Assembly: GCA_016713245.1 (NCBI GenBank) | Contig: JADJPM010000001.1 | Coordinates: forward strand, 1,679,076 to 1,743,075 | Source: Verrucomicrobiaceae bacterium | GTDB taxonomy: Bacteria; Verrucomicrobiota; Verrucomicrobiia; Verrucomicrobiales; Verrucomicrobiaceae | Length of the DNA: 64,000 nucleotides | Direction: 5' to 3' | In this document: one piece after another, positions 50,098 through 64,000 of the stretch | Position numbering within the stretch: position 1 is the first letter of the stretch | Layout of the letters: every line of letters begins with the position of its first letter | Notes under the pieces: generated by a model | Database searches by the model: none | Told to the model about the DNA's origin: nothing | Seen by the model: the letters and a program-made list of their open reading frames with translations, nothing else | Translations under genes and position numbers: made by a program

Positions 50098-50210
50098 CGG
50101 AGGCAATGACCGGTGCAGATTCAGCCCAAAGAGCATTCATCATACGATTTGGGAAACACACGAGTCCATTCTTGATTCGAGATGCTCGGCTGGGTTAGAC
50201 TTTGAGTTCT

Positions 50211-52124
50211 ATGCCGCTTCTCCCGAACGAGTTTGATCCAGGTATTTTGTATTGTGGCGTTACGTTGCTTGCTTTGCTCGCTCTTTGCTGGCTCGCGGGC
50301 ATCGGTCTCATGCCTGCGGCGCTGGCTTCGGAAGATGCCTTGGAAAGGTTCGCACTACGCTGCGCTAGCGGAATGCTGTTTTTATCGGGTGTGGCTGCTT
50401 TGTTCGTTTTGCAGCGTGCTTCATACGTTGCGCTGATTCCTGCCTCACAGGTGCTGATGGCTCTGTGGGCACGGAAACGTGAGAAACCTATGCAAGGGAC
50501 ACCGCGAGAAGTTTGGTCTGCAAAAGGGCGGTGGCTGATTCTTGCGGTGATTCTCGGTGGAGCGGCATTCGAATGGTGGAACACGGGATGGGTGGGCTGG
50601 GATGGTCGATTGAGCGTCCTGCACATGGATTTTGGCTTTTTCTCGAACCAAGCACGCGGCATGTTGGAATCCCGTATGGCAGATGGCTGGAGTTCAACCA
50701 TGGCTCAGCACGCTGCCGAAGTGCCGTCCAGCCGAGACGTGTGGTATCACTGGGGGCCGATGTGGATTGCTGGGACGGTGACATCACTCACTGGGATGAT
50801 GCCATTGGCTTCGCTCATGCATGTCACGGGTGCGCTCCTGGATATCATCTTGGTTTTTTGTGCTGGTGCCATTGTGCGTCGTATCAGCGGTCTCAGCCAC
50901 GGTCCTGCGCTACTTCTCGGTGCGGCCTCAATGATCAGTGTGCCGCTTTCGCGGAGCTTGGGGCAGCAGTGGTTCGGACTCACTGCCGCTACTGAGACGC
51001 TGCATCTGATGCGCATGAGCCTTGCCTACGTGTTTAGCTATAAGCTGGAGGCGGTGGCAGTTTTCGCGGCCGTGCTTCTGTGGTTACGAGCGGAGCGAGG
51101 CTTTGCCCTTGGGCTGCTGGGTTGCGCAGCCATCGCCTCGCCTCATGTGCTGGCGGTCGGGGGTGTGACGGCGGGCGTTTTGACTTTTGTTGGGCTGCTG
51201 CGCCGGGAAGGCGCTATGGTGAGGACAGGATCGGTGATCATTGGTGCGCTGCTCATCGTGTGGGGTGTGCTGCACTTCGGATGTGGCTCTTCTTTGCCCA
51301 GAGCGGAGGGCCAGGCCCTCATCCAGTTGAATGCCAGCCACCTCTTCAACAGCGTGCGGATGGGACTGCGTGACAGCGCAGTGGCGCTGGTGATCGGAGT
51401 ATTGTCTCTTCCAGGCATTCTTCTGCTGATCCGCGCAGCCGAGGAAATGAAAAGGCTGCTCGGCTGGTTGGCTTTGAGCTCTCTTTTCGGGTCGTTCTTG
51501 GGCTACCGGTTGGTCACGGAAATGGCGGATAACCAACTGCACTTCATCGTCATGGCCCATGCACTGCTGATCATGCCAGCGGGTGTCTGGGGGCTCGCGA
51601 TGATTGTCTCCCGGAAAGAGACAAAAGCCTGGCAGAGAGCGTGCGCCATTTTCCTCATCCTTCTTGGCTCAGGCATGGGCGTGGCGGACCTAATCCAGCA
51701 CCGCAGTGCTTATCAGCGCCCCTGGACGATCGATGAGCTTGCCCCCATCAAGAAGGCCCTCGCAGGACGTGCTTTTGGATACTACTCACGGAGAGATAGC
51801 GGCTGGTGGATGCCCATTCACGGTCCTCTGGCGGCCATGCTGGACGCACGCTGTGCCCGCATCGCGCCCATGAAGTCAGAGCTGCCTGGAGGTTGGGAGG
51901 CTGCAGGCACGCAGAAAGGAGTTCGCCCATTCGAGTTGGTGCCGCCGGTGGCGAATGAAACGTTGGAGGATTGGTCACTGCGCTATGCAGAGCGTATCGG
52001 AGTCACCTGCCTGGCCGAGTGTGCTGGAGATCGTCTGCCAACAGGCGTGATGCCTCGTGTGCGTGAAGTGGCGCGGGTGCCGGGTTTTGTGCTTTATGAA
52101 ATTTTGCCCAAAGCACCTCTGTAA
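50211..52124 (+). CDS. Polytopic membrane protein of unknown function
   Basis: Many TM segments; T/G-rich codon usage unlike neighbours. Confidence 0.65.
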   Translation: MPLLPNEFDPGILYCGVTLLALLALCWLAGIGLMPAALASEDALERFALRCASGMLFLSGVAALFVLQRASYVALIPASQVLMALWARKREKPMQGTPREVWSAKGRWLILAVILGGAAFEWWNTGWVGWDGRLSVLHMDFGFFSNQARGMLESRMADGWSSTMAQHAAEVPSSRDVWYHWGPMWIAGTVTSLTGMMPLASLMHVTGALLDIILVFCAGAIVRRISGLSHGPALLLGAASMISVPLSRSLGQQWFGLTAATETLHLMRMSLAYVFSYKLEAVAVFAAVLLWLRAERGFALGLLGCAAIASPHVLAVGGVTAGVLTFVGLLRREGAMVRTGSVIIGALLIVWGVLHFGCGSSLPRAEGQALIQLNASHLFNSVRMGLRDSAVALVIGVLSLPGILLLIRAAEEMKRLLGWLALSSLFGSFLGYRLVTEMADNQLHFIVMAHALLIMPAGVWGLAMIVSRKETKAWQRACAIFLILLGSGMGVADLIQHRSAYQRPWTIDELAPIKKALAGRAFGYYSRRDSGWWMPIHGPLAAMLDARCARIAPMKSELPGGWEAAGTQKGVRPFELVPPVANETLEDWSLRYAERIGVTCLAECAGDRLPTGVMPRVREVARVPGFVLYEILPKAPL

Positions 52125-52137
52125 GCATCACAAACCC

Positions 52138-52917
52138 ATGAAATCGATCTTTACCTTTCTTTGCCTCATCAGCCTGCTTTCCGCTCAGGAGGTCAAACTA
52201 CCGCCGAAGGAGCAGTTTCATCTGTTTTTGCTCGTCGGGCAATCCAACATGGCCGGGCGTGGCGTGGTGGAGGAGCAGGACAAGACGTCGCATCCGCGTG
52301 TGCTGATGCTGAGCAAGGACGGCCAGTGGGTGCCGGCAGTCGATCCGCTGCACTTCGACAAGCCAGCCGTGGGTGTGGGCTTGGGCAAAACCTTTGGCCA
52401 GCTCATCGCCGAGGCAAATCCGGGCGTGACCATCGGCCTCATTCCCTGCGCGGTGGGCGGCTCGCCGATTGATTCTTGGCAGCCTGGCGTGTTTTACGCA
52501 CCCACAAAGAGTCATCCTTGGGATGACACGGTGAAGCGTGTGGCGCTTTCTCTGCCGATGGGCACGATCAAAGGCATTCTGTGGCATCAGGGCGAGAGTG
52601 ATTGCAAACCGGAGCTGGCCTCCGCCTATGCGCCCAAGCTCCACGACCTCGTGAAACGCCTTCGCGAGCTGGTGAAAGCACCGAACGTGCCCTTCATCGC
52701 CGGGCAGATGGGCAAGTTCGACGAGGTGCCGTGGTCGCCGGAGATCGTGACGGTGGATCAGGCACATCAGGAGCTGCCCAAACACGTCTCCAACACCGCC
52801 TTCGTCACCGCCGAGGGCCTCAAGCACAAGGGCGACAAGATCCACTTCGATGCCGCGTCTTACCGCGAACTCGGAAAACGGTATGCGAAGGCATTCTCGA
52901 AGATGGCGGCCAAGTGA
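52138..52917 (+). CDS. Sialate O-acetylesterase (SASA/SGNH) family
   Basis: LLVGQSNMAGRG, GGSPI, ILWHQGESD, DKIHF. Confidence 0.88.
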   Translation: MKSIFTFLCLISLLSAQEVKLPPKEQFHLFLLVGQSNMAGRGVVEEQDKTSHPRVLMLSKDGQWVPAVDPLHFDKPAVGVGLGKTFGQLIAEANPGVTIGLIPCAVGGSPIDSWQPGVFYAPTKSHPWDDTVKRVALSLPMGTIKGILWHQGESDCKPELASAYAPKLHDLVKRLRELVKAPNVPFIAGQMGKFDEVPWSPEIVTVDQAHQELPKHVSNTAFVTAEGLKHKGDKIHFDAASYRELGKRYAKAFSKMAAK

Positions 52918-52928
52918 ATGCTCCACTT

Positions 52929-52956
52929 TTCACGCCGTCATTCGCACCAGCACGGC
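52929..52956. repeat. Direct repeat of the ilvA 3' end (att-like, left)
   Basis: TTCACGCCGTCATTCGC exact 17 bp, 24/28 extended, to 62829-62856. Confidence 0.75.
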
Positions 52957-53034
52957 AGCCCTTTAGCCATTGAGACAGCAGCAAACTTTCCTCACATGTT
53001 TGCCAAAGTGTGGCAGTCTGCTCTTTTTTCCGCA

Positions 53035-53769
53035 ATGACCCGGGAGCCACATCCGCCATCAAAGGCCGCCTCATTCCATACGACGAGGTGGACGCGTGTA
53101 GGCCTCGCCAAAACGGGGTCTGAGGATGGGAAGCGAGCCTTGGCGGATCTTTGTGATTCGTACTATGAGCCGGTCGTCGCCTTTCTGCGCTGGGAGTTGC
53201 GGGACGCGGACGCGGCACGGGACATGAGCCATGCGTTCTTCTCGGAGATGCTCGCTGGCGGCACGATTGCGGGAGTGGAGCAGGGGCGCGGGCGCTTTCG
53301 CTCTTACTTGCTGGGCGCGGTGAAGCATTTCCTCGCCAACCAGCGAGAAGCGGCTCGCCGCATGAAGCGAGGCGGTGGCGTGGTGAACGTTTCCCTCGAT
53401 GAGGACTTGTCCGGCGTGCTCAACTTACCTGATGAGAGGCAGATCTCGCCCGACGCAGCCTTTGACCGTGAATGGGCGCTGACCACGCTGGCGCATGCGA
53501 TGGAGACGGTCAAACAGGAGTGCGAGAAGGAAGGTAAGGCAGATTTTTTTCATCAAATCAAGCCCTGGCTGACGGGAGATGCCACCCATGGAGACCAGGG
53601 CGCGGTGGCGGAAGCATGCGCCATGAGTCCTGCGGCGCTGAAGATGGCCATTAGTCGCTTGCGCAGGCGATTTCGGGATTGCGTGCGAGCGGAGGTCGCC
53701 GGCACCTTGGATGATGTGGCGATGGTGGAGACGGAAATGCAGGAATTGTTCGCGGCTCTTTCATCATGA
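53035..53769 (+). CDS. ECF RNA polymerase sigma factor (kinase-associated PVC type)
   Basis: FHTTRWT, YYEPV, GRFRSYL, FDREWA, ALKMAISRLRRRF. Confidence 0.85.
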   Translation: MTREPHPPSKAASFHTTRWTRVGLAKTGSEDGKRALADLCDSYYEPVVAFLRWELRDADAARDMSHAFFSEMLAGGTIAGVEQGRGRFRSYLLGAVKHFLANQREAARRMKRGGGVVNVSLDEDLSGVLNLPDERQISPDAAFDREWALTTLAHAMETVKQECEKEGKADFFHQIKPWLTGDATHGDQGAVAEACAMSPAALKMAISRLRRRFRDCVRAEVAGTLDDVAMVETEMQELFAALSS

Positions 53770-53777
53770 ACTTATTT

Positions 53778-53803
53778 GGTTACCCATTCCGGCTCCTGCG
53801 TCA
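53778..53803 (+). promoter_or_regulatory. Candidate ECF promoter GGTTAC-N15-CGTCA (copy 1, kinase)
   Basis: Same motif and spacing at 56759 and 57344. Confidence 0.65.
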
Positions 53804-53812
53804 CTTGTCTGC

Positions 53813-56715
53813 ATGAGTGATTCGTCCCCCAGCTCCTGCCCGAAATGCCAAGCGGCCCTGCCCGCCCATGCGACGGAGGGATTGTGCCCGCGCTGCCTGA
53901 TGGCCCAGGTGATGCAGCCCTCACAGGTCTCCGCGCCTGAGGGGACACCACGACCCACGGGTGCAGCAGCGCCTGAGCTTCCCTTGCCGGAGGAGCTCAC
54001 CGCGTTGCTCCCAGCGGAAACCTATCGCGTGGATTATTTGATCGGTCGGGGTGGCATGGGCGCGGTTTACAAGGGGGAGCAGTTGCGGCTCGATCGCCCG
54101 GTCGCGATCAAACTCATGCGACGTGACCAGGGGCGGGACCATGGCTTTGAACAGCGTTTCCACCGTGAGGCGCTGGCCATGGCCAAGCTGAACCACCCGA
54201 ACATCGTGAGCGTCATCGACTATGGCGAGGCGGGTCCAGACTACCTCTACATCGTCATGGAGTTGGTGGAGGGTGCGGACATGATGGAGGTGCTCCGCAC
54301 CGGGCGCATGACGCAGGAGATGGCGCTGAGGCTGCTGCCGCAGATTTGTGACGCGCTCCAGTTCGCCCACGACCACGGCATCGTCCATCGCGACATCAAG
54401 CCGAGTAACATCATGCTCACCCGCGACGGTCGCATCAAGATGTGCGACTTCGGCCTGGCGAAGCGCCACGACGTGGAGAGCACCTTCCAGACCCGGAGCG
54501 GCACCGGGATGGGCACACCGGATTACGCCGCGCCGGAGCAGTTCAGCGCGGCGGACCAAGTGGATCACCGCGCGGACATCTATGCGCTCGGTGTGATGAT
54601 TTATCAGATGCTCACCGGCCATCTCCCTCGCGGAGCGTGGAAACCGCCGACACAGCACACGATGTGCGATCCGTTTTGGGATGAGATCGTGAGCCACGCG
54701 ATGCAGACCGATCCCAAGGACCGCTATCAGGCGGCCAGCGAGGTCAAATCCGATGTCAGCAGCATCCCGCTAGCCTCCGCTGATCAGCTTGGCCCGCGAC
54801 CAAGCACTGAGTCAGAGGGCCAGCACATGCCTACCCGCGCCGCCTCCCACACGCCGCTTATCCTCGGCATTGTGCTGTGCGTGGTCGTGCTCGCAGGCAT
54901 TCCCTTCTTTACCTCGCGGCCGGATGCTGGGGACAACGCTCCCGAGGCATCTCGTTCCGCCCCCGAGGCCGAAGTCCACACTTTCGCGGGTCATCGCTAC
55001 CAGTTCGTGCCCGGCGCGGACCGCTGGGAGGAGGCCAAGGCGAAGGCCGAGACGATGGGCGGGCACCTGGCGACGATCACGAGCAAGGAGGAGAACGAGT
55101 TCATCTACGCCACCTTTGGTGACAAACTCGATCCGGCCATCCGCGCCTCCAGCATCTGGATTGGCGGGTTTGCTGGCAGCATGGGCCAATCATTCAAATG
55201 GGTCACCGGCGAGCCTTTTGGCTTCACCGATTGGTCGGCGGGCGAGCCTGATTACTCCGGCACGTCGGGCCAGCCGATGCCAGGGACGTTTGGCGTGCTC
55301 ATCAAACACATGGGACGCTCAATTGGTTTGATGACCCCGTGAAGCGCTACGATTTGAAAGCTGGCTTCATCGTCGAGTGGGACGACATTGGCACCGCGAA
55401 GCTCGCACCGCTCTCCCCCGGCACCGTGGACTTGCTCGCACTGGCCGATTTCGTCAAAGATGCTGTAGGCGGCACCTGGCGTCGCGAGGGCACGGATTTG
55501 ATCGTGGCTGAAGATGAAGCCTCGTCCGGGAGAAAAGGGGTTCGTTTTGGTCTCGCCCTGCCGGTGCAGGTACAAGGTTCCTACCAGATCGAGGTCGAGT
55601 TCACGAGGCTCAGCCGAAAGCGAAACTCTGGGAATCTAGGCACGGTCTGCCTGCTCCTCCCGCTCCCGGACGGGCGCAGCGCGGCGGCGTTTTTCCAGGA
55701 GTCCAATCCCTACGCGGGGCTGGCGAGCGTGCGTGGCTACACCACCCGGCAGGCGGAAAATCCCACGCGCATCCCCAACCAGTTGGAGGATGACCGCCGC
55801 TACCGAGGCACTGTGAAGGTACTCATCAAGGGCGACCAAGTGGACATCGCCGCCACTCTGGATGGCAAACCTCTCTTTCAATTCCAAGGCCCGGTCACGG
55901 ATCTGGAGTCCCCGGATCTGTTAGTCATGGCGGACCCGGCTCGTCCCGGCATGAGAAGCATCGATCCCGTGGCGTGGCACAGCGTCCGCATCACCCCGCT
56001 GGACGGCGGCACGCTCACCCCGGTGAGGCCCGACGCCATTCCACCAGCAACCAGTGGGTCGGCGGCGGCCTCTGCGCCTCAGGCACCCGGAGCCGTGGAC
56101 CTGCTCGCCTTAGCTGATGTCGTCAAAGATGCGGAAGGCGGTGTCTGGCGTCGCGAGGGAGCGGATTTGACCACTGCCGACGATCCAGCCAAGCCCCGCG
56201 TCAAGAGCTCTGGCACCCGGCTCAGCCTCGCCCTCCCGGTGCGGGTGACGGGATCCTACCGTGTGGAGGTCGAGTTTACGAAACTTGGCCGCAGAGAAAC
56301 CGTCAGCGTGATCCTCCCGCTCGCGGACGGCCGGAGCGTGGTGGCGAATTTTCTGGAAAGCTCGGATTTCGCGGGGCTGGTCTACGTGCGTGGTTTCACC
56401 CTCAAGGACGCGGGCAACCCCACACGCACACTCCATCAGTTGGAGAACGAGCGCCGTTACCAGGCCTCGGTGGAGGTGCTCATCAACGGCGATCAAGTTC
56501 ACATCACCGCCACCTTCGAGGGCAAGCCGCTCTTTCGCTTCCAGGGGCCAGTGGCGGACCTCGACAGCCGCCAGTATGCCATGGCGGACCCGGCTCGGCC
56601 CGGCCTCAAAAGCATGGCCCCAGTGACGTGGCACACTTTTCGCCTCACCCCGCTGGATGGCGGCACGCTCACTCCGGTGAGGCCGGATGTGATCCTGCCG
56701 GCCACCAAGCCATAG
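53813..56715 (+). CDS. Membrane Ser/Thr kinase with C-type-lectin-like domain and two duplicated beta-sandwich domains; frameshift near 55317
   Basis: CPKC..CPRC N-terminus, IGRGGMG, HRDIKPSN, DFG, GTPDYAAPE; lectin motifs WEEAK..GGHLATI and NWFDD..GFIVEW split by the frameshift. Confidence 0.85.
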
Positions 56716-56758
56716 TGCGGGGGAGACCCGCGAGCCGCTGCCTGGCCGCAAAAAACCT

Positions 56759-56784
56759 GGTTACCTATCCCGGGCGGCGCGTCA
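56759..56784 (+). promoter_or_regulatory. Candidate ECF promoter GGTTAC-N15-CGTCA (copy 2)
   Basis: ctGGTTACctatcc...CGTCAggag. Confidence 0.7.
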
Positions 56785-56817
56785 GGAGCCTGCATGAGCC
56801 ACTCATCCGCTCTCGCC

Positions 56818-57318
56818 ATGAAAACCATCCTGTTCATCCTCGTCTGCGCATCCGCCGCCCTTTCGCCCGCCTTCGCCCAGGCGCAGGACACCGAAGTCAA
56901 GGTCCAGCGCCGCACTCTCGACCGGGAGGACAAGCTCAACCGCCCAAAGAAGAATGCTCAGGAGCTGACATGCGGCCTTCGCATCACCGTGAAGAACGCC
57001 ACCACCAAGCCGCTCGGGGAGGGCGAGATCGAGTGGGCCGTGCTCGTGCAGCGGCCGAGTGGCCAGCGCAAGGCGTTGTATAGCTCAGGGAAGGAAAAGC
57101 TCCCATCACTCCAAGCGTTGGCGGAGATGACGATGGATGTCGGAGCCGTCGCCGTGCAGCACGATGGGTCGAAACGCCAGGAAATGGAGTATCAAGTTAT
57201 CGTCCGCCGCGACGGGGTCGAGGTAGCGAAGGCGGAAAGCACCCCCAGCTTTTCCCAGCAGGCCGAATCGGCCAGCGGAGCCAAAAAGAAGAGCAAGGCC
57301 ACAGGAAAGCAGAAATAG
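56818..57318 (+). CDS. Secreted hypothetical protein
   Basis: Signal peptide MKTILFILVCASAALSPAFA. Confidence 0.7.
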   Translation: MKTILFILVCASAALSPAFAQAQDTEVKVQRRTLDREDKLNRPKKNAQELTCGLRITVKNATTKPLGEGEIEWAVLVQRPSGQRKALYSSGKEKLPSLQALAEMTMDVGAVAVQHDGSKRQEMEYQVIVRRDGVEVAKAESTPSFSQQAESASGAKKKSKATGKQK

Positions 57319-57343
57319 CCCGCCGGACGCCCTGAAAAAAACT

Positions 57344-57369
57344 GGTTACCAATCCGCTGGGGCACGTCA
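57344..57369 (+). promoter_or_regulatory. Candidate ECF promoter GGTTAC-N15-CGTCA (copy 3)
   Basis: ctGGTTACcaatcc...CGTCAggag. Confidence 0.7.
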
Positions 57370-57427
57370 GGAGTCTCCACGAGCCCGTCATCCGCCCTTT
57401 CGCTTCCCTCGGCCACCCACCCATTCC

Positions 57428-60400
57428 ATGAAAACCAAACATCATCGCCTGCTGCACCTCTGCCTTTTGATCGGCACCCTTTTACGTTGCCGCTTTGTTT
57501 CGAGAATCATCTTGAGCGGCTGTCTCGCTGCGCTCGGCTCGGCAGGGGGCACGCTACATTCTCAGGTGCCCAATCTCGTCAGCTACCAGGGCCGCGTCGC
57601 CGTCGGCACGGTGAATTTCGAAGGCACCGGCCAGTTCCGCTTCGCCCTGGTGAACACATCCGGCACCACCGTCTATTGGGGCAACGCGGCTGACACCACG
57701 CCCGCTGACGGCGTGCCGGATGCCGCCGTCTCCCTCACTGTGAGCAAGGGCCTCTACTCCGTGCTCCTCGGCGACACGAGCATCGCCAACATGGCCGCCA
57801 TCCCTGCAAGTGTATGGACCAATCCCGACGTGCGGCTCCGCGTTTGGTTCAACGACGGCGTGAACGGCAACCAGCTCCTCACCCCCGACCAGCGCCTCAC
57901 GCCCGTCGGCTATATCGCCGATGGCGCGGTTACATCCGCCAAACTGACCTCAGGCTCCGTGACGAGCACCCAGCTCGCCAGCGGCCTCACTCTTGGCGGC
58001 ACCACCAGCGGCACTTTCAGTGGCACTTTCAGTGGCAACGGGAATGCGCTCACCACCCTGAATGCCACCAGCCTCACCAGCGGCACCGTGGCCGATGCCC
58101 GGCTCTCGTCCAACGTGGCGCTTCGCAACAGCGCGAACACGTTCACGGGTGCCCTTTCCATGGGATCGAACAGCACCTTTATCGCGCCACACCGCCCCGG
58201 CAGCACGGGCAACGACAACAGTTTCATCGGCAACAACGCGGGCGGTTCCAACACCACGGGCGCATCGAACACCATCATGGGGAACACCAGCTTTGCGTAC
58301 AACACCACCGGCAGTTTCAATACCGGTGTCGGCCGCTACGCTCTCAACTTAAACATCGAGGGCCACGGCAATACTGCTGTGGGCATGAACGCGCTCCGTG
58401 CCACCACGAGCAGCAACAATACAGCGGTGGGCCGCGATGCGCTGATCAACAACACCACCGGCACTGGCAATATCGCGCTCGGCTATCTGGCAGGAAATGC
58501 GCTGACGACCGGCAGCAACAACATCCACATCGGAAACCTGGGGGTGGCTGGAGAAAGTGCCATCATCCGCATCGGCACGAGCCAGACGGATACATTCCTC
58601 ACCGGCATCATCCATGGCGACGGATCTGCGCTCACGGGTCTCAACGGCGCGAATCTGGCCGCAGGATCAGTCGCCAGCACACAACTGGCTGTGGGCGCTG
58701 TGCAGACGGCAGCCATCACGGATGGTGCCGTCACCGCCGCCAAGCTCGGGGCCGATGTCGGCCTCTGGTCCGCCGCTGGCGCGGATGTCTTCCGCAGCGC
58801 GGGAAATGTCGGCATCGGCACCGCCGCTCCTCTTGCGAAACTCGAAGTCTCCGACGGCACCGCAAGCCTTCAAATCCGCCCCGGCGAACTCAACGGCACC
58901 GTCTCCGCCGGTGACGTGACCTTGGAAATCTCCGGCAATCACACCCTCGGCATTTGGGACTCGCTCAAAGTCCACAGCAACCTCAACGTCGGAGGCGACT
59001 ACTACGGCCGCGGCCACATGTGGCTCCACGCCTTCGAGGGCGATGGAGTGAGCGGTACCGCTGTCCTCCAGGCCCGCGACACCAGCGGCACCTCCAGCAT
59101 CGGCCTCCAGCTCCGCACCCAATACACCGGCACCTGGCTGAACTCTCTGATGATCGCCCCGGACGGTAAAGTGGGCATCGGCACCAACGCACCCACGACC
59201 AGGCTCGAAGTGAGCGGCGACATCAAGGGCAGCGCCTTTATCGGCAGCGGGGCCGCGCTCACCGGCCTCCCGGGCGGCAACATCAATGCGGGCACGGTGG
59301 GAACCACCCAGCTCGCCGCCGCATCCGTCACCGCCGCCAAGCTCGGGACCGACGTGGGCCTTTGGAGTGTCAGCGGCGCGAATGTCTTCCGCAGCGCCGG
59401 CAACGTCGGCATCGGCACCAGTTCACCGGGGCGGCCACTGCAGGTTGATGGAACCTCCCCGGCGATGGTCATTGGCAACGAATTCATTCCAGGCAGGACC
59501 AGCCTGCTGATGGCAGTGACGGCGAATTCAGGAGGTCACTCCATCCTTCAGAGCACCAGCAGCGCGGGTGGCTCTTTTGGGGCGCTCAGCCTGCAGCCGA
59601 ATGGAGGTGATGTCGGCATCGGCACTGAAACACCCACGGCCAAGCTCGAAGTAAACGGCAGCATCAAAGGCACCTCATTCATCGGCAGCGGTGCAGGGCT
59701 CACCAACCTCAACGGGGCGAGCCTCACCGCAGGCAGCGTGAGCGGCACCCAGCTTGGGAGCAATCTCACCCTCGGCGGCATCACGACGGGCAGCTTCAGC
59801 GGCAACGGCGCGGGGCTGACAAACCTGCCCAATTCCGCCACCACCGGCACGGCGGCCAATACACCGAACACCCTCGTCCTGCGTGACGGCAGCGGAGACT
59901 TCTCCGCTCATTCCCTGTCCCTGAGCGGCAGCTTGAGCCTTCCCGCGACGACGGGCGGTGGTGACGGGGTGGTTTCCATCGGCGGTCAGCGTGTGCTCCA
60001 CACGCGCGGCTCCGGCAATGTCTTTATCGGCACGAACGCCGGCAACCTGACAATGACTGGCACCCATAACACAGCCAGCGGAAATAATGCGCTTGCCTTC
60101 AACACGACCGGCTACGCAAACATGGCCAGCGGAGAAAGTGCGCTTTTCTCCAACACGTCCGGCTTCTACAACACAGCCAACGGAAATAATGCGCTTTATT
60201 CAAACACGACCGGCTCCGGAAATACGGCCAGCGGACGTAGTGCGCTTTTCTCCAACACGACCGGCACCCACAACACGGCCAGCGGAACTAATGCGCTTGC
60301 CTTCAACACGACCGGCTCCGACAACACGGCCAGCGGACATAGTGCGCTTCGCTCCAACACGGAAGGCCACTTCAACACAGCCAGCGGAGGACAGGCGCTT

Positions 60401-61504
60401 TACTACAACACGACCGGCTCCGACAACACGGCCAGCGGAACTAATGCGCTTTTCTCCAACACGACCGGCTCCGACAACACGGCCATCGGAGAAGGTGCGC
60501 TTTACTACAACACGACCGGCTCCGGCAATATTGCGTTAGGCCAGGATGCCGGCGGCAACATCACAAACACCCACAACAACATCTGCATTGGCAATCTCGG
60601 TGTCACTGGCGACAGCGGGATCATCCGAATTGGCACGGATGGAACACACCAAAGAACCATCCTCGTCGGCAACGTGGGCATCGGCACGAACTCCCCCACG
60701 CAGGCGAAACTCGAGGTGAACGGTGGTGCCAGCACGACCGCCGGGCAGTTCGGCAACGTGCGCTACTTCAATCTTCAAATTGACGGCACCGTCAGCAACT
60801 GGGGCGGCGGACTCGTTTCCATCTATGCCTCCGACAACATCGTTGCCAGCGGCATCGGCCTCTTCTCCGATGCGCGGATCAAGAACATCACAGGCCGTTC
60901 CTCCTCGGTCACCGACCTCGAGACCCTACAAAAGATCGAAATCACCGATTACACCATGAAGGACACCGTCGCCAAAGGCACGGGCACCATCAAAAAAGTC
61001 ATCGCCCAGCAGGTCGAGAAAGCCTTCCCGCAGGCCGTCACCCGCGGCCAGGGCATCATCCCGGACATTTACCAAGCCGCCGCCGTGGAAAACGGCTGGG
61101 TCATGCTCGCCACCGATCTCCAGCCCGGCGACCGCGTGAAACTCCTCGGCGACAAGGACGAGGCGGTGCATGAAATCCTCGAAGTGGAGAAGGAGCGGTT
61201 CCGGCCCGCCGCGCTCCCCGCCGGTGGGAAGGTCTTCGTTTATGGGCGCGAGGTGAACGACCTGCGCCGTGTGGACTACGACGCCATCTCCATGCTCAAC
61301 GTCTCCGCCACCCAGGAACTGGCGAAGAAGCTCGCCGCGAAGGACGCGGAAATCGCCCGGCTCGCCGCGGAGAACGTGGAAATGAAGAGACAGCTCGTGG
61401 CGCAAGCCGAGCGGGACAAAGCCCTCGAAGCCCGCCTGGCCAGGCTGGAGCAAAACGTTCAGACCGCACGCGTGCAGACGGTGAAGGTGGCACTGAAGAA
61501 GTAA
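57428..61504 (+). CDS. Secreted tail-fibre-like beta-solenoid protein with peptidase S74 (intramolecular chaperone) domain
   Basis: Repeated GNVGIGT, NTAxGxxAL units; SDARIKN, GVIAQ-like KVIAQQV, VDYDAI; C-terminal coiled coil. Confidence 0.82.
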   Translation: MKTKHHRLLHLCLLIGTLLRCRFVSRIILSGCLAALGSAGGTLHSQVPNLVSYQGRVAVGTVNFEGTGQFRFALVNTSGTTVYWGNAADTTPADGVPDAAVSLTVSKGLYSVLLGDTSIANMAAIPASVWTNPDVRLRVWFNDGVNGNQLLTPDQRLTPVGYIADGAVTSAKLTSGSVTSTQLASGLTLGGTTSGTFSGTFSGNGNALTTLNATSLTSGTVADARLSSNVALRNSANTFTGALSMGSNSTFIAPHRPGSTGNDNSFIGNNAGGSNTTGASNTIMGNTSFAYNTTGSFNTGVGRYALNLNIEGHGNTAVGMNALRATTSSNNTAVGRDALINNTTGTGNIALGYLAGNALTTGSNNIHIGNLGVAGESAIIRIGTSQTDTFLTGIIHGDGSALTGLNGANLAAGSVASTQLAVGAVQTAAITDGAVTAAKLGADVGLWSAAGADVFRSAGNVGIGTAAPLAKLEVSDGTASLQIRPGELNGTVSAGDVTLEISGNHTLGIWDSLKVHSNLNVGGDYYGRGHMWLHAFEGDGVSGTAVLQARDTSGTSSIGLQLRTQYTGTWLNSLMIAPDGKVGIGTNAPTTRLEVSGDIKGSAFIGSGAALTGLPGGNINAGTVGTTQLAAASVTAAKLGTDVGLWSVSGANVFRSAGNVGIGTSSPGRPLQVDGTSPAMVIGNEFIPGRTSLLMAVTANSGGHSILQSTSSAGGSFGALSLQPNGGDVGIGTETPTAKLEVNGSIKGTSFIGSGAGLTNLNGASLTAGSVSGTQLGSNLTLGGITTGSFSGNGAGLTNLPNSATTGTAANTPNTLVLRDGSGDFSAHSLSLSGSLSLPATTGGGDGVVSIGGQRVLHTRGSGNVFIGTNAGNLTMTGTHNTASGNNALAFNTTGYANMASGESALFSNTSGFYNTANGNNALYSNTTGSGNTASGRSALFSNTTGTHNTASGTNALAFNTTGSDNTASGHSALRSNTEGHFNTASGGQALYYNTTGSDNTASGTNALFSNTTGSDNTAIGEGALYYNTTGSGNIALGQDAGGNITNTHNNICIGNLGVTGDSGIIRIGTDGTHQRTILVGNVGIGTNSPTQAKLEVNGGASTTAGQFGNVRYFNLQIDGTVSNWGGGLVSIYASDNIVASGIGLFSDARIKNITGRSSSVTDLETLQKIEITDYTMKDTVAKGTGTIKKVIAQQVEKAFPQAVTRGQGIIPDIYQAAAVENGWVMLATDLQPGDRVKLLGDKDEAVHEILEVEKERFRPAALPAGGKVFVYGREVNDLRRVDYDAISMLNVSATQELAKKLAAKDAEIARLAAENVEMKRQLVAQAERDKALEARLARLEQNVQTARVQTVKVALKK
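60068..60526 (+). repeat. Nine 51-bp coding tandem repeats (17 aa NTASGxxALxxNTTGxx)
   Basis: Direct reading of the DNA and protein period. Confidence 0.9.
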
Positions 61505-61522
61505 TCCCAATCACCCACGACC

Positions 61523-62557
61523 ATGGACACTTCCACCCTCATCGAACCCAATGGCGCGCAGCGCCCTGGACTGCGCGCAGCCCTGCTGCCGCCTTTCCGA
61601 GGCAGCCCTGCTGCCGCCGCAGTCTCCAAAGTTTTGAATCCTGATCCGCTGCCGCAGTCCAGGGGCTTCGCCCTCGCCTTCCTCATCCTCTTTGTCTCCC
61701 TCGCCTACGCCGGACCCCGCTCGTCCGCGAGCTACACCATCACCACCGACACCGTCAGCCATGGCGGCACCCGCATAACGAGCGCGGCTTACACGAACGA
61801 CGGCAGCGCTGGCGGCATCGTCGGCATCTCCACCGTCGCCGCTCCCGCGCAGATGGCCAAAGCGGGCTACACCGCCCAGCTCACCGAGGTCACCGCTCTC
61901 CAGCTCGCCGCCACGCCCACGACGATCAACGAAGGCACCACACGCCAGCTCACCGCCACCGCCACGCTCGATGATGCGACGACCACCGCGCTGCTCGCCA
62001 CCGATGTGACCTGGAGCGTGCCGAGCGGGCCGCTCACCAGCATCAGCACCAGCGGCCTGGCCACGGCGGGCATCGTGTATCAAAACACCGCCGCCACCGC
62101 GCAGGGCGTGTATTCCGGCATCACCGGCTCACTGAACCTCACCGTCATCAACACGAACACCGACGACATCCCAGGCTACTCTGGCGATGGTCTCGACGAC
62201 GCCTGGCAGGTCCAATACTTCGGTCTCAGCAATCCCAACGCCGCCCCGCTGCTCGATCCCGATGGTGATGGGCACACAAACGTGTTTGAAAACCTCGCCG
62301 GCATTGATCCCACCAGTGCCGCCAGCTTCTTCCGCGTGACGCAGAGCATGCTCAGCGCCAACAGCTTCCACCTGACCTTTCCCACCGTCCCAGGACGCAG
62401 TTACCAGCTCCAATCCTCCCCCAACCTCGCCCCTCCCTGGACGGACATCGGCACGGCGGAGGCTGGCACAGGAACCGCGCTGACACTACCTGTGAACGTG
62501 AGTGGCGAGACGCGTTACTTCTTCCGCGTGAGCGTTCAGCCGCTCCCCGAAGGCTGA
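61523..62557 (+). CDS. Secreted protein with Ig-like domain, DxDGDG motif and Verrucomicrobia-type C-terminal domain
   Basis: TQLTATATLDD, DGLDDAWQ, DPDGDG, YQLQSSPNL..W...YFFRV. Confidence 0.75.
   Translation: MDTSTLIEPNGAQRPGLRAALLPPFRGSPAAAAVSKVLNPDPLPQSRGFALAFLILFVSLAYAGPRSSASYTITTDTVSHGGTRITSAAYTNDGSAGGIVGISTVAAPAQMAKAGYTAQLTEVTALQLAATPTTINEGTTRQLTATATLDDATTTALLATDVTWSVPSGPLTSISTSGLATAGIVYQNTAATAQGVYSGITGSLNLTVINTNTDDIPGYSGDGLDDAWQVQYFGLSNPNAAPLLDPDGDGHTNVFENLAGIDPTSAASFFRVTQSMLSANSFHLTFPTVPGRSYQLQSSPNLAPPWTDIGTAEAGTGTALTLPVNVSGETRYFFRVSVQPLPEG
61564..61664. repeat. REP/MITE-like palindromic insertion in the 5' end of 61523
   Basis: CCCTGGACTGCG ... CGCAGTCCAGGG terminal inverted repeat; internal direct repeat GCAGCCCTGCTGCCGCC x2. 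Confidence 0.6.
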
Positions 62558-62609
62558 TTCCGCATTCGACACTCCGCTCAAAGACCTGCGCACCACCTAA
62601 AGCACCGCT

Positions 62610-62801
62610 ATGGCCAAAATCACCGCTGCGCGGGAAGCCAGGGCCGCGCCACTCGATGACATCTACCTCACCGCGCTCGATGTCTATGGGGCCGAGTTGA
62701 CCAAGGCAGGCAGGATCAAGGAAGCCAGCCAGATCCGCGTCCTCCGCGAAAGCACTTGGCAGTCATCCAAGTCAGCGCCGCCGCCCGTCACCAGCCCATA
62801 G
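62610..62801 (+). CDS. Small hypothetical ORF, possibly a gene remnant
   Basis: 63-aa helical ORF just inside the right repeat. Confidence 0.35.
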   Translation: MAKITAAREARAAPLDDIYLTALDVYGAELTKAGRIKEASQIRVLRESTWQSSKSAPPPVTSP

Positions 62802-62828
62802 ACCATGCCAGAGGCACCTGCCTCCATG

Positions 62829-62856
62829 TTCACGCCGTCATTCGCGCCAACGTGGC
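62829..62856. repeat. Direct repeat (att-like, right), coincides with the ilvA stop
   Basis: Matches 52929-52956. Confidence 0.75.
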
Positions 62857-63999
62857 CTCATCGACCGCTTTGCACGAGCGATAGCCTTCGCCCTGCTCGG
62901 GCAGATCAGCCAGGAAGGCATCGCGTTGAGCCGCTTCATGAAACGAGAGGCCGATGAGCGCACGACCGACACGCTCGCCGGACTGGCGGTAGTTGAAGTA
63001 GCAGAGGCTGGTGCGGTCGCGGATGAGGCGGGAGAGGAAGTCGTGCAGGGCACCGGGGCGTTCGTAGAAGTCGAGACGGAGGAAAAGCGGATGCGTGAGC
63101 AGATCACCGCGCAGCGGGATGGCGCGGAAGGCCACATCGACCGCGCCGCTGAGGTCCTGCCATTGGAAACCGCCCGCATCGAGCCGCGCGGGCAGTTCGG
63201 TGAGTTTTGCGGCGCTTTCGGCGGTGACGGTGAAGACAGGCCACGCCTCGTCGGGATGATGCAGGCCGTATTGGAAGTCGGCGATGTTCAGGCCCTCGAA
63301 ACAGGAGTCGAGCAGCGACAGCATCGCGCCGGGTCGCTCGGGAATGTTGATGCGCAGCGTGCGGGATACCGTGCTGGCCGCGCCTTCGCTTTGCGCGATG
63401 AGGCCGAGTTGGAGGAAGTCGATGTTTGCGCCGGTGATGACAATGAGAACCTTCTTGCCCGCCAGCGCCGCACGTTCCTTGAGCACCGCCGCGAGGCCCA
63501 TCGCGCCGCTGGGCTCGGAAATGCAGCGCAAGGTCTCCCACAGCACGCGGATGGCCGCGCTGACCTCCGCGTTCGTCACGGTGGAAATGCGATTGAGCAT
63601 CGTGCGGCAGATTTCAAAGGGCAGGGCACCTGCTTTTCGCACGGCGGTGCCATCGCAGAAGATGTCGAGGTCATGCAGCTCAACCGGCTTGCCACTTTCG
63701 ATGGCCGCTTTCATCGACGCCTGGCCCACACCTTCCACGCCGATGATTTCGATGCTGGGCCAGTAAGTTTTGAGCCAGTCTGCCGTCGCCGAGGCCATGC
63801 CACCGCCGCCGATTTGCAAAAACGCCGCGTCGAACGGTCCATGGCCCGAAAGCACGATTTCATCCGCCAGCGTGCCCTGACCGGCCATCACCGCGAGATC
63901 GTCGTAAGCATGCACATACACCGCTCCGCTGGCCTTTTCATGCTCGCGAGCCGCGAGCACCGCTTCGTCGTAACTGTCGCCCGTGAGCACGATCTGCAC
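62830..63999 (-). CDS. ilvA: Threonine ammonia-lyase, biosynthetic (5' part outside window)
   Basis: HAYDDLAVMAGQGT, IGGGG, FCDGTAV, EPSGA, GAN; ACT-like domains with PERPGA, FQY, FNYR. Confidence 0.9.
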   Translation of the reverse strand: MQIVLTGDSYDEAVLAAREHEKASGAVYVHAYDDLAVMAGQGTLADEIVLSGHGPFDAAFLQIGGGGMASATADWLKTYWPSIEIIGVEGVGQASMKAAIESGKPVELHDLDIFCDGTAVRKAGALPFEICRTMLNRISTVTNAEVSAAIRVLWETLRCISEPSGAMGLAAVLKERAALAGKKVLIVITGANIDFLQLGLIAQSEGAASTVSRTLRINIPERPGAMLSLLDSCFEGLNIADFQYGLHHPDEAWPVFTVTAESAAKLTELPARLDAGGFQWQDLSGAVDVAFRAIPLRGDLLTHPLFLRLDFYERPGALHDFLSRLIRDRTSLCYFNYRQSGERVGRALIGLSFHEAAQRDAFLADLPEQGEGYRSCKAVDEATLARMTA

Positions 64000-64000
64000 G

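Follow-up and report, generated by a model that had tools for sequence, protein, structure and literature searches.

How did a block of six genes come to lie directly behind the stop codon of ilvA, the gene of threonine dehydratase, with a short second copy of that gene's end on its far side and no recombinase gene within it? The question is posed by a 64,000-nt stretch of the genome of a Verrucomicrobiaceae bacterium (GCA_016713245.1, JADJPM010000001.1:1,679,076-1,743,075, forward strand), which we call the window. It corresponds to C1:1679076-1743075 of G000, our name for the whole genome of 7,128,469 bases (7.13 Mb); positions past 64000 continue the numbering of the window into the DNA outside it. 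Judged from the anatomy of the locus together with analogy to other gene ends of the same genome, the block, here module X, was probably acquired by a homology-anchored insertion-duplication that made no use of a site-specific integrase. The features on which the argument turns are as follows.

52135..52917, + strand: sialate O-acetylesterase (SASA/SGNH; Pfam PF03629, E 3e-65), the left flank, with its stop TGA at 52915-52917
52929..52956, - strand: relic, the last 27 nt of ilvA (8 sense codons, AVLVRMTA, and the stop TGA) and 1 nt past the stop; non-functional
52957..62828, all genes on the + strand: module X, 9.9 kb, six genes by open reading frames (ORFs) and Pfam
62829..62856, - strand: working repeat copy, the last 27 nt of ilvA1 including the stop and 1 nt
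62830..64000 in the window and to 64377 beyond it, - strand: ilvA1, threonine dehydratase (Pfam PALP and Thr_dehydrat_C; full ORF 515 aa)
~64439-73285, outside the window, between ilvA1 and ilvA2: cargo Y, 8.9 kb, with an esterase, a BNR/FAD protein, a sulfatase and others
73286-74848, outside the window, same orientation as ilvA1: ilvA2, the second copy, in syntenic context

A second ilvA end beyond module X

Both ends of module X are marked by a direct repeat. The 17-mer TTCACGCCGTCATTCGC occurs exactly, on the + strand, at 52929-52945 and 62829-62845, and the match extends to 24 of 28 nucleotides (52929-52956 against 62829-62856; repeat family D12). The exact core adjoins an 11-nt stretch that holds all four mismatches (A/G, G/A, A/G and C/T), which are transitions throughout. 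Read on the minus strand, the right copy forms the genuine end of the 515-codon ilvA1, ...ATLARMTA*, and the left copy reads AVLVRMTA*, with just 10 codons open above the stop. A preliminary description of the window had given the repeat and the two C-termini in the same terms, and both stand, the repeat in the window as well as in the assembled genome. It had also considered that the 17-mer might be a dispersed repeat. This is ruled out: allowing one mismatch, TTCACGCCGTCATTCGC has no third site in the window and just these two in the 7.13 Mb of G000, and two matches in the window were reached in none of 100 shuffles.

An exact 17-mer alone is unremarkable, because the window contains other chance exact 17-mers (I9, I11). 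The position of this one at a gene end is a different matter: when the terminal 28-mers of 8,365 ORFs were searched within 15 kb, 141 own-tail matches were found for the real ORF ends and 1 for reversed 28-mers used as a control. It is very probable that the left copy is a true ilvA tail that was displaced. Its AVLVRMTA* fits the C-terminal consensus of ilvA in the genus, (A/E)(V/T)(L/M)ARMTA*; its CGA Arg codon is shared with both ilvA copies of G000 and found nowhere else; and of the four bases in which it departs from ilvA1, three are those of ilvA2. Nor is it part of a conserved trailer of the esterase gene, since the orthologues in G019, G003, G024 and L035 have no sequence in common downstream of their stop codons.

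G000 has two copies of ilvA, a duplication that the preliminary description had missed. The two genes lie 10.4 kb apart in the same orientation and are 92.5% identical over 1613 nt, and their homology sets in precisely at the stop codon. Read in the direction of transcription, ilvA2 is followed by 8.9 kb, ilvA1, the 9.9-kb module X, the 28-nt relic, 12 nt (from the antisense stop of the relic to the stop of the esterase) and the convergent sialate esterase, so that three ilvA ends follow each other in direct orientation and homology is lost at the stop codon in each. The usual arrangement in the genus is a single ilvA between FAD oxidoreductase and BNR/FAD genes. This is the context of ilvA2, and the gene that borders module X, ilvA1, is therefore the extra, lineage-specific copy. 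The sulfatase upstream of ilvA1 is also found in G023 and two metagenome contigs. In a nucleotide tree ilvA1, ilvA2, L031 and L032 form one clade with mutual identities of ~92-93.5%, while the first 150 nt of ilvA1 and ilvA2 are 99.3% identical, which suggests, on the pattern of identity, ongoing gene conversion between the two. Recombination between them would remove the 8.9-kb carbohydrate-active block that they enclose.

The six proteins of module X contain no recombinase, transposase or reverse transcriptase (RT) domain detectable with Pfam, in agreement with the earlier statement that the island is integrase-free. About 10 or more tyrosine recombinase genes (PF00589) are present in G000, the nearest at C1:1218358, ~0.5 Mb or more away (serine recombinases were not searched genome-wide). 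No terminal repeats were found on module X, and its G+C content (0.60-0.67) is like that of the flanks (0.58-0.65). A search of 52000-64000 against Rfam gave no match, and reading the repeat as a terminator or promoter gave nothing convincing; one weak terminator-like hairpin lies at 53000-53016, within module X.

Own-tail copies at other gene ends

The ilvA relic is one of many such tails. We surveyed G000 for copies of the last 24 coding nucleotides of each gene (≤3 mismatches) that are followed by an in-frame stop and do not end a long frame. A downstream own-tail copy in direct orientation was found for 39 genes; the same survey returned 9 copies upstream, 6 and 4 inverted copies, and 0 with reversed queries. 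The ilvA relic, with 4 mismatches in those 24 nt, narrowly misses this filter. In about two dozen clean cases the repeats extend from 24-245 nt before the stop codon to about -4...+19 around it. The cargos that they enclose measure 0.57-13.8 kb. All 29 cargos checked are free of tyrosine recombinase genes, no similarity was detected among 16 single-gene cargos, and no common end motif was found among cargos. A few larger cargos are weakly alike, chiefly in their kinase domains, and are otherwise unrelated; three are ECF/kinase modules, two of them besides module X and of a size similar to it. Some cargo genes are of defence type. By Pfam, cargo genes were assigned as a YhcG-type nuclease gene, a pair of SMEK/DUF2326 genes and FecR/cyclase genes, and small cargos are read from their sequences as encoding PIN and MazF toxins, a SUKH immunity protein, a DUF4143 ATPase and a class-D beta-lactamase-like protein. 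One survey hit, c8, is a false positive caused by a palindromic REP-like element at the gene end.

At two of these sister loci a relative retains the empty site. The Fe-alcohol dehydrogenase (Fe-ADH) gene at C4:995432 is followed by a 10.1-kb cargo with a sigma factor, an LRR kinase and other genes, and then by a relic that matches at 27 of 28 positions. The corresponding gene of G096 (92% identical) has one copy of the 27-mer and a convergent neighbour 9 nt past its stop. G111, G108 and G105 carry other cargos at the same spot with no repeat at all, and in every genome compared the sequences diverge immediately past the stop.

The second locus is L128 (C4:3096500-3104500). Its gene1, an EF-hand/redoxin gene ending in TGA, is followed by a 2.9-kb cargo (a glutathionylspermidine synthase-like gene and a later ISL3), a 36-nt stub, a 125-nt copy of the gene1 tail that also ends in TGA, a MazF cargo and a convergent SDR gene. 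The stub consists of 36 nt from the end of the SDR gene and is fused to the tail copy. The repeat had appeared to run to +51; in the right frame it ends exactly at the true stop. G108 (95% identical) is without the 2.9-kb cargo and has a single tail, and in G111 gene1 and the SDR gene are 15 nt apart. The gene-proximal tail is closer to the relative than the other copy is (96% against 91%). The order at L128, gene2 stub and then gene1 tail, is the reverse of the chromosomal order, and such a permuted joint is, as a matter of sequence arrangement, exactly the product to be expected if a donor fragment gene1'-cargo-gene2' had its ends joined and recombined once within gene1'. Two sequential tail-duplicating insertions would yield the opposite order of stub and tail.

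Another gene end, at C4:622947, has two successive own-tail copies downstream, of 222 nt (619155) and 58 nt (618297), an arrangement suggestive of repeated insertions behind one gene end.

Insertion-duplication weighed against other explanations

The same origin would account for the ilvA scar. DNA from a related cell would have carried module X beside a short ilvA tail; closed to a circle, it would have entered by a single homologous crossover in the tail (Campbell type). Alternatively, a linear piece would have joined by one homologous and one illegitimate end across sister chromosomes. By either route the tail would be duplicated, one copy remaining on the gene and the other stranded past the cargo beside the old neighbour, here the esterase, which would place module X directly behind the ilvA stop and leave a 28-nt dead tail copy at 52929. 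The simplest reason for the repeats to end at the stop codon would be that donor and recipient are no longer alike beyond it. Another event of this kind, with a whole-gene repeat, would explain the series ilvA2, 8.9 kb, ilvA1. The earlier proposal that the module had inserted at the 3' end of ilvA and displaced the old terminus thus stands insofar as the left copy is a displaced tail with the module exactly between the two; either of the tails may be the old one. As to its suggestion that the module was mobilised either in trans or by homologous recombination, we favour the homologous, integrase-free route and disfavour a recombinase acting in trans.

Several observations weigh against this account. 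For a RecA-dependent crossover, 28 nt of homology with an exact core of 17 is very little, and the relic may once have been longer and been trimmed after the event. No esterase stub is recognisable beside the relic (52957-53035), so the ilvA locus is without a closure joint of its own. The joint at L128 is compatible with a circle and with a linear homology-facilitated event across sister chromosomes alike, as both give the same product, and does not speak for either intermediate. The empty site that had been predicted, with ilvA directly convergent on the esterase, was found neither in 105 genus genomes nor in 80 metagenome loci with ilvA relatives, and the donor arrangement, ilvA followed by module X, was not seen in the same genomes and loci or in the contigs of the closest homologues of p344, the 344-aa protein encoded at the right end of the module. 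These homologues sit in different contexts, as do the orthologues of the esterase and of the neighbouring acetyl-xylan-esterase (AXE) in relatives. Seven of the 80 metagenome loci are 94-96% identical and have among them at least 5 different downstream contexts. Because synteny in this clade breaks every few genes, the failure to find an empty site or a donor carries little weight either way.

The nearest approach to an empty site is L035, in which AXE and the esterase are followed by a convergent alpha/beta-hydrolase gene (Yest293), ilvA and an FAD oxidoreductase gene: the esterase thus converges on an esterase-ilvA pair. This arrangement equals that of G000 minus window positions 52906-72367. 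To judge by gene order, it shows a former proximity of the esterase to the ilvA2 block, and it differs from the predicted empty site. A degenerate relic in the L035 spacer was considered and is not significant, its score being reached by 52-203 of 2000 shuffles.

Might an intergenic stretch resemble the ilvA end by coincidence? The repeat is short, an empty site is missing, very many windows were looked at in the first stage, and, as noted above, exact 17-mers do arise by chance in this window. We nevertheless regard chance as very unlikely: reversed queries gave a single match in the first test and none in the stricter survey, and the match here is direct, downstream and intergenic, 12 nt past the stop of the esterase, the gene at which left-flank homology to relatives ends. 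The C-terminal motif of the family is kept, and the agreement with the paralogue at three of four mismatches would, by our own estimate, be met in about 1 in 27 cases. A trimmed pseudogene, that is, a third full or long ilvA that once stood beside the esterase and was mostly deleted or overwritten by the module until 28 nt were left, is unlikely. It would suit a genome in which ilvA already occurs twice, 10.4 kb apart and in the same orientation, in which the three ilvA ends have similar spacings (9.9 and 10.5 kb) and the relic shares states with both copies. Yet there is no ilvA-like sequence past the 28 nt, the adjoining DNA being an intact sigma gene region on the opposite strand, and other loci, the two with empty sites among them, as a rule have short relics of the tail only. 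It is in any case largely a variant of insertion-duplication, as the 28-mer would still be a displaced tail.

Site-specific integration would make module X a degenerate element of the type of the cis-mobilizable elements (CIMEs), its tyrosine or serine recombinase elsewhere or lost, with an att site overlapping the ilvA end and the 17-bp core as crossover. Direct repeats over a gene 3' end are the classical att scar, an exact 17-bp core lies beside an 11-nt stretch with four mismatches, tyrosine recombinase genes exist in G000, and the cargo at the Fe-ADH site differs from species to species. Yet mismatches that cluster outside the 17-mer are what a repeat found by an exact seed would show, and other Fe-ADH cargos are without any repeat. 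There is no recombinase in or near module X, and the search of other genomes did not bring up the module as a unit. Moreover, 39 genes with differing tails, repeats of 24-245 nt and no shared end motifs are a poor fit for a few enzymes, and we consider this explanation quite unlikely. The ilvA end is also rejected as a recurrent att site: when the 7-12 kb behind ilvA were searched in 12 relatives, and 26 kb in G023, no second ilvA tail came to light.

Three further candidates were rejected. A target-site duplication of a transposon does not agree with repeats of 28 nt here and 24-245 nt elsewhere, nor with the lack of a transposase and of terminal repeats in module X. A diversity-generating retroelement would have an RT domain, which is missing, and a repeat of ~100 nt instead of 28, and the mismatches are mixed transitions and do not follow template adenines. 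An origin by tandem duplication is ruled out by the DNA past the relic, which is unrelated to that past the ilvA stop.

Homology-anchored insertion-duplication, the explanation that we prefer, has counterparts among known systems. A single crossover of incoming DNA, foreign or from a relative, at a stretch of homology duplicates that stretch in direct orientation around the insert and requires no enzyme encoded by the element. The anchors used for insertion-duplication and for homology-facilitated illegitimate recombination (HFIR) in the laboratory are longer than 150 nt, and we know of no genome-wide count of natural insertion-duplication scars. Both HFIR and Campbell-type insertion-duplication were reportedly described by de Vries and Wackernagel in 2002 and by Prudhomme et al. 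in 2002, two papers to which PMC2884548 refers. The loci described here resemble such events in that the repeat is a direct copy of the resident gene, with the cargo between the copies and the distal copy non-functional, in that conserved element ends and an enzyme are lacking and the repeat length varies by locus (24-245 nt), and in the donor-end joint preserved at L128. They are unlike the laboratory cases in the shortness of the repeat, 28 nt at ilvA, and in the presence of ~39 scars in one genome, nearly all of which end at a stop codon.

Integrative elements also occupy the 3' ends of protein genes: e14/phage 21 at icd, and the integrative and conjugative elements (ICEs), integrative and mobilizable elements (IMEs) and CIMEs of Firmicutes at fda, rpsI, rpmG and others. 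These have a dedicated recombinase, a single target and conserved att arms and recur as a unit; CIMEs are without an integrase. Module X shares with them the succession of gene, element and displaced partial copy of the gene end, the intact reading frame and the flanking direct repeats over the gene end. Unlike in these elements, a recombinase, recurrence as a unit and conserved ends were not found for module X.

Small strain-variable segments have been analysed in three species, E. coli, S. aureus and S. pyogenes, where 10-18% of them are flanked by direct repeats, most of <30 bp (Touzain et al. 2010, PMC2884548). The loci in G000 belong to the same class of micro-diversity; the repeats in that study are not described as copies of the tail of the upstream gene, and no Verrucomicrobium was included. 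Natural transformation of S. pneumoniae is described as forming merodiploids, and recombination of incoming DNA as able to create duplications in place of replacements (PMC3784515); the duplications treated there are large tandem ones between repeated loci, unlike the kilobase cargos behind gene ends seen here.

By itself, the ilvA scar is an ordinary, routine recombination scar which shows one sensory module gained by insertion. A broader view, that gene tails serve as portable homology tags for a general integrase-free traffic of cassettes in this Verrucomicrobial lineage, is possible but doubtful. The cargo between a working and a stranded tail (the last 25-250 nt of a gene) would then loop out as a circle, the two tails recombining with each other, and re-enter the end of the same gene in another cell, perhaps aided by a dedicated annealing or Y1-type enzyme. 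If this were true, a sizeable part of the accessory genes would have been gained by this route, among them whole ECF-sigma/kinase sensory modules, at ~39 sites in this one genome. Combined, the count over the genome, the directional control and the permuted joint make integrase-free gene gain directly countable: own-tail relics are a simple footprint of it that could be counted in any genome, and would be useful also in phyla with few recognised mobile elements. For annotators, short "att-like" repeats at gene ends need not mean an integrative element.

Gene content of module X and neighbouring DNA

The genes of module X are:

52918-53769 (frame; real start probably near 52995-53035), + strand: ECF sigma factor
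53711-55342, + strand: Ser/Thr kinase with a C-type lectin-like tail, 543 aa
55339-56715, + strand: 458-aa two-repeat protein
56794-57318, + strand: 174-aa secreted protein
57428-61504, + strand: 1358-aa fibre-like repeat protein with a Peptidase_S74 chaperone domain
61523-62557, + strand: p344, 344 aa, of a large Verrucomicrobial family

As an orthologous block the module was not found in the 105 genus genomes, where matches were confined to kinase domains and, weakly, to the sigma factor; each genome of the genus has dozens of kinase paralogues. An exact-sequence look-up of p344 returned no record. A core of sigma factor, small protein, S74 protein and p344 recurs in two contigs of metagenome-assembled genomes, L111 (DAOMWZ010000012) and L112 (DPZU01000006). 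In both, the core cassette is bracketed by two Y1 (IS200-like) transposase genes.

The ORFs of the kinase and the 458-aa protein overlap by 4 nt (GTGA), and the repeat domain of the latter corresponds to the C-terminal part of paralogous kinases of 836-1458 aa. Because the paralogues carry the repeat domain fused in one kinase, the pair would represent, on its sequence, either a split gene or a frameshift error of the assembly.

The esterase at the left flank starts at the ATG of MKSIFTF... at 52135, as read from its translation; the listed open frame begins at 52057. Between it and AXE lies a 640-aa membrane-protein gene (50202-52124); AXE and the esterase are adjacent in G003 and L035. In a search of 40 relatives the membrane-protein gene was found in none; a paralogue of it (75%) is located at C4:1382495. 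The gene looks like a further local insertion, probably of intragenomic origin.

A hairpin-rich element of ~60-90 nt is located upstream of ilvA2 (74844-74928), with an inverted copy beside a 290-aa ORF that adjoins ilvA1 (~1494-1582 of L003, equivalent to 65418-65506 in the numbering of the window) and further copies at a few other sites of G000, e.g. C1:622530. In G023 the recombinase gene adjoining ilvA encodes a 314-aa XerC/D-type tyrosine recombinase and is followed by pyrF. In G019, a fragmented relative, the contig with ilvA (C24, L015) breaks off within the gene near residue 361, and the assembly lacks the 3' part; the break might reflect a second, collapsed ilvA copy.

The gene of the fibre-like protein is itself repetitive. 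Ten tandem repeats of 51 nt (17 residues) occupy positions 59953-60630 of the window, and additional repeats of the "GNVGIGT" type are scattered along the gene (repeat families D1, D3 and D7).

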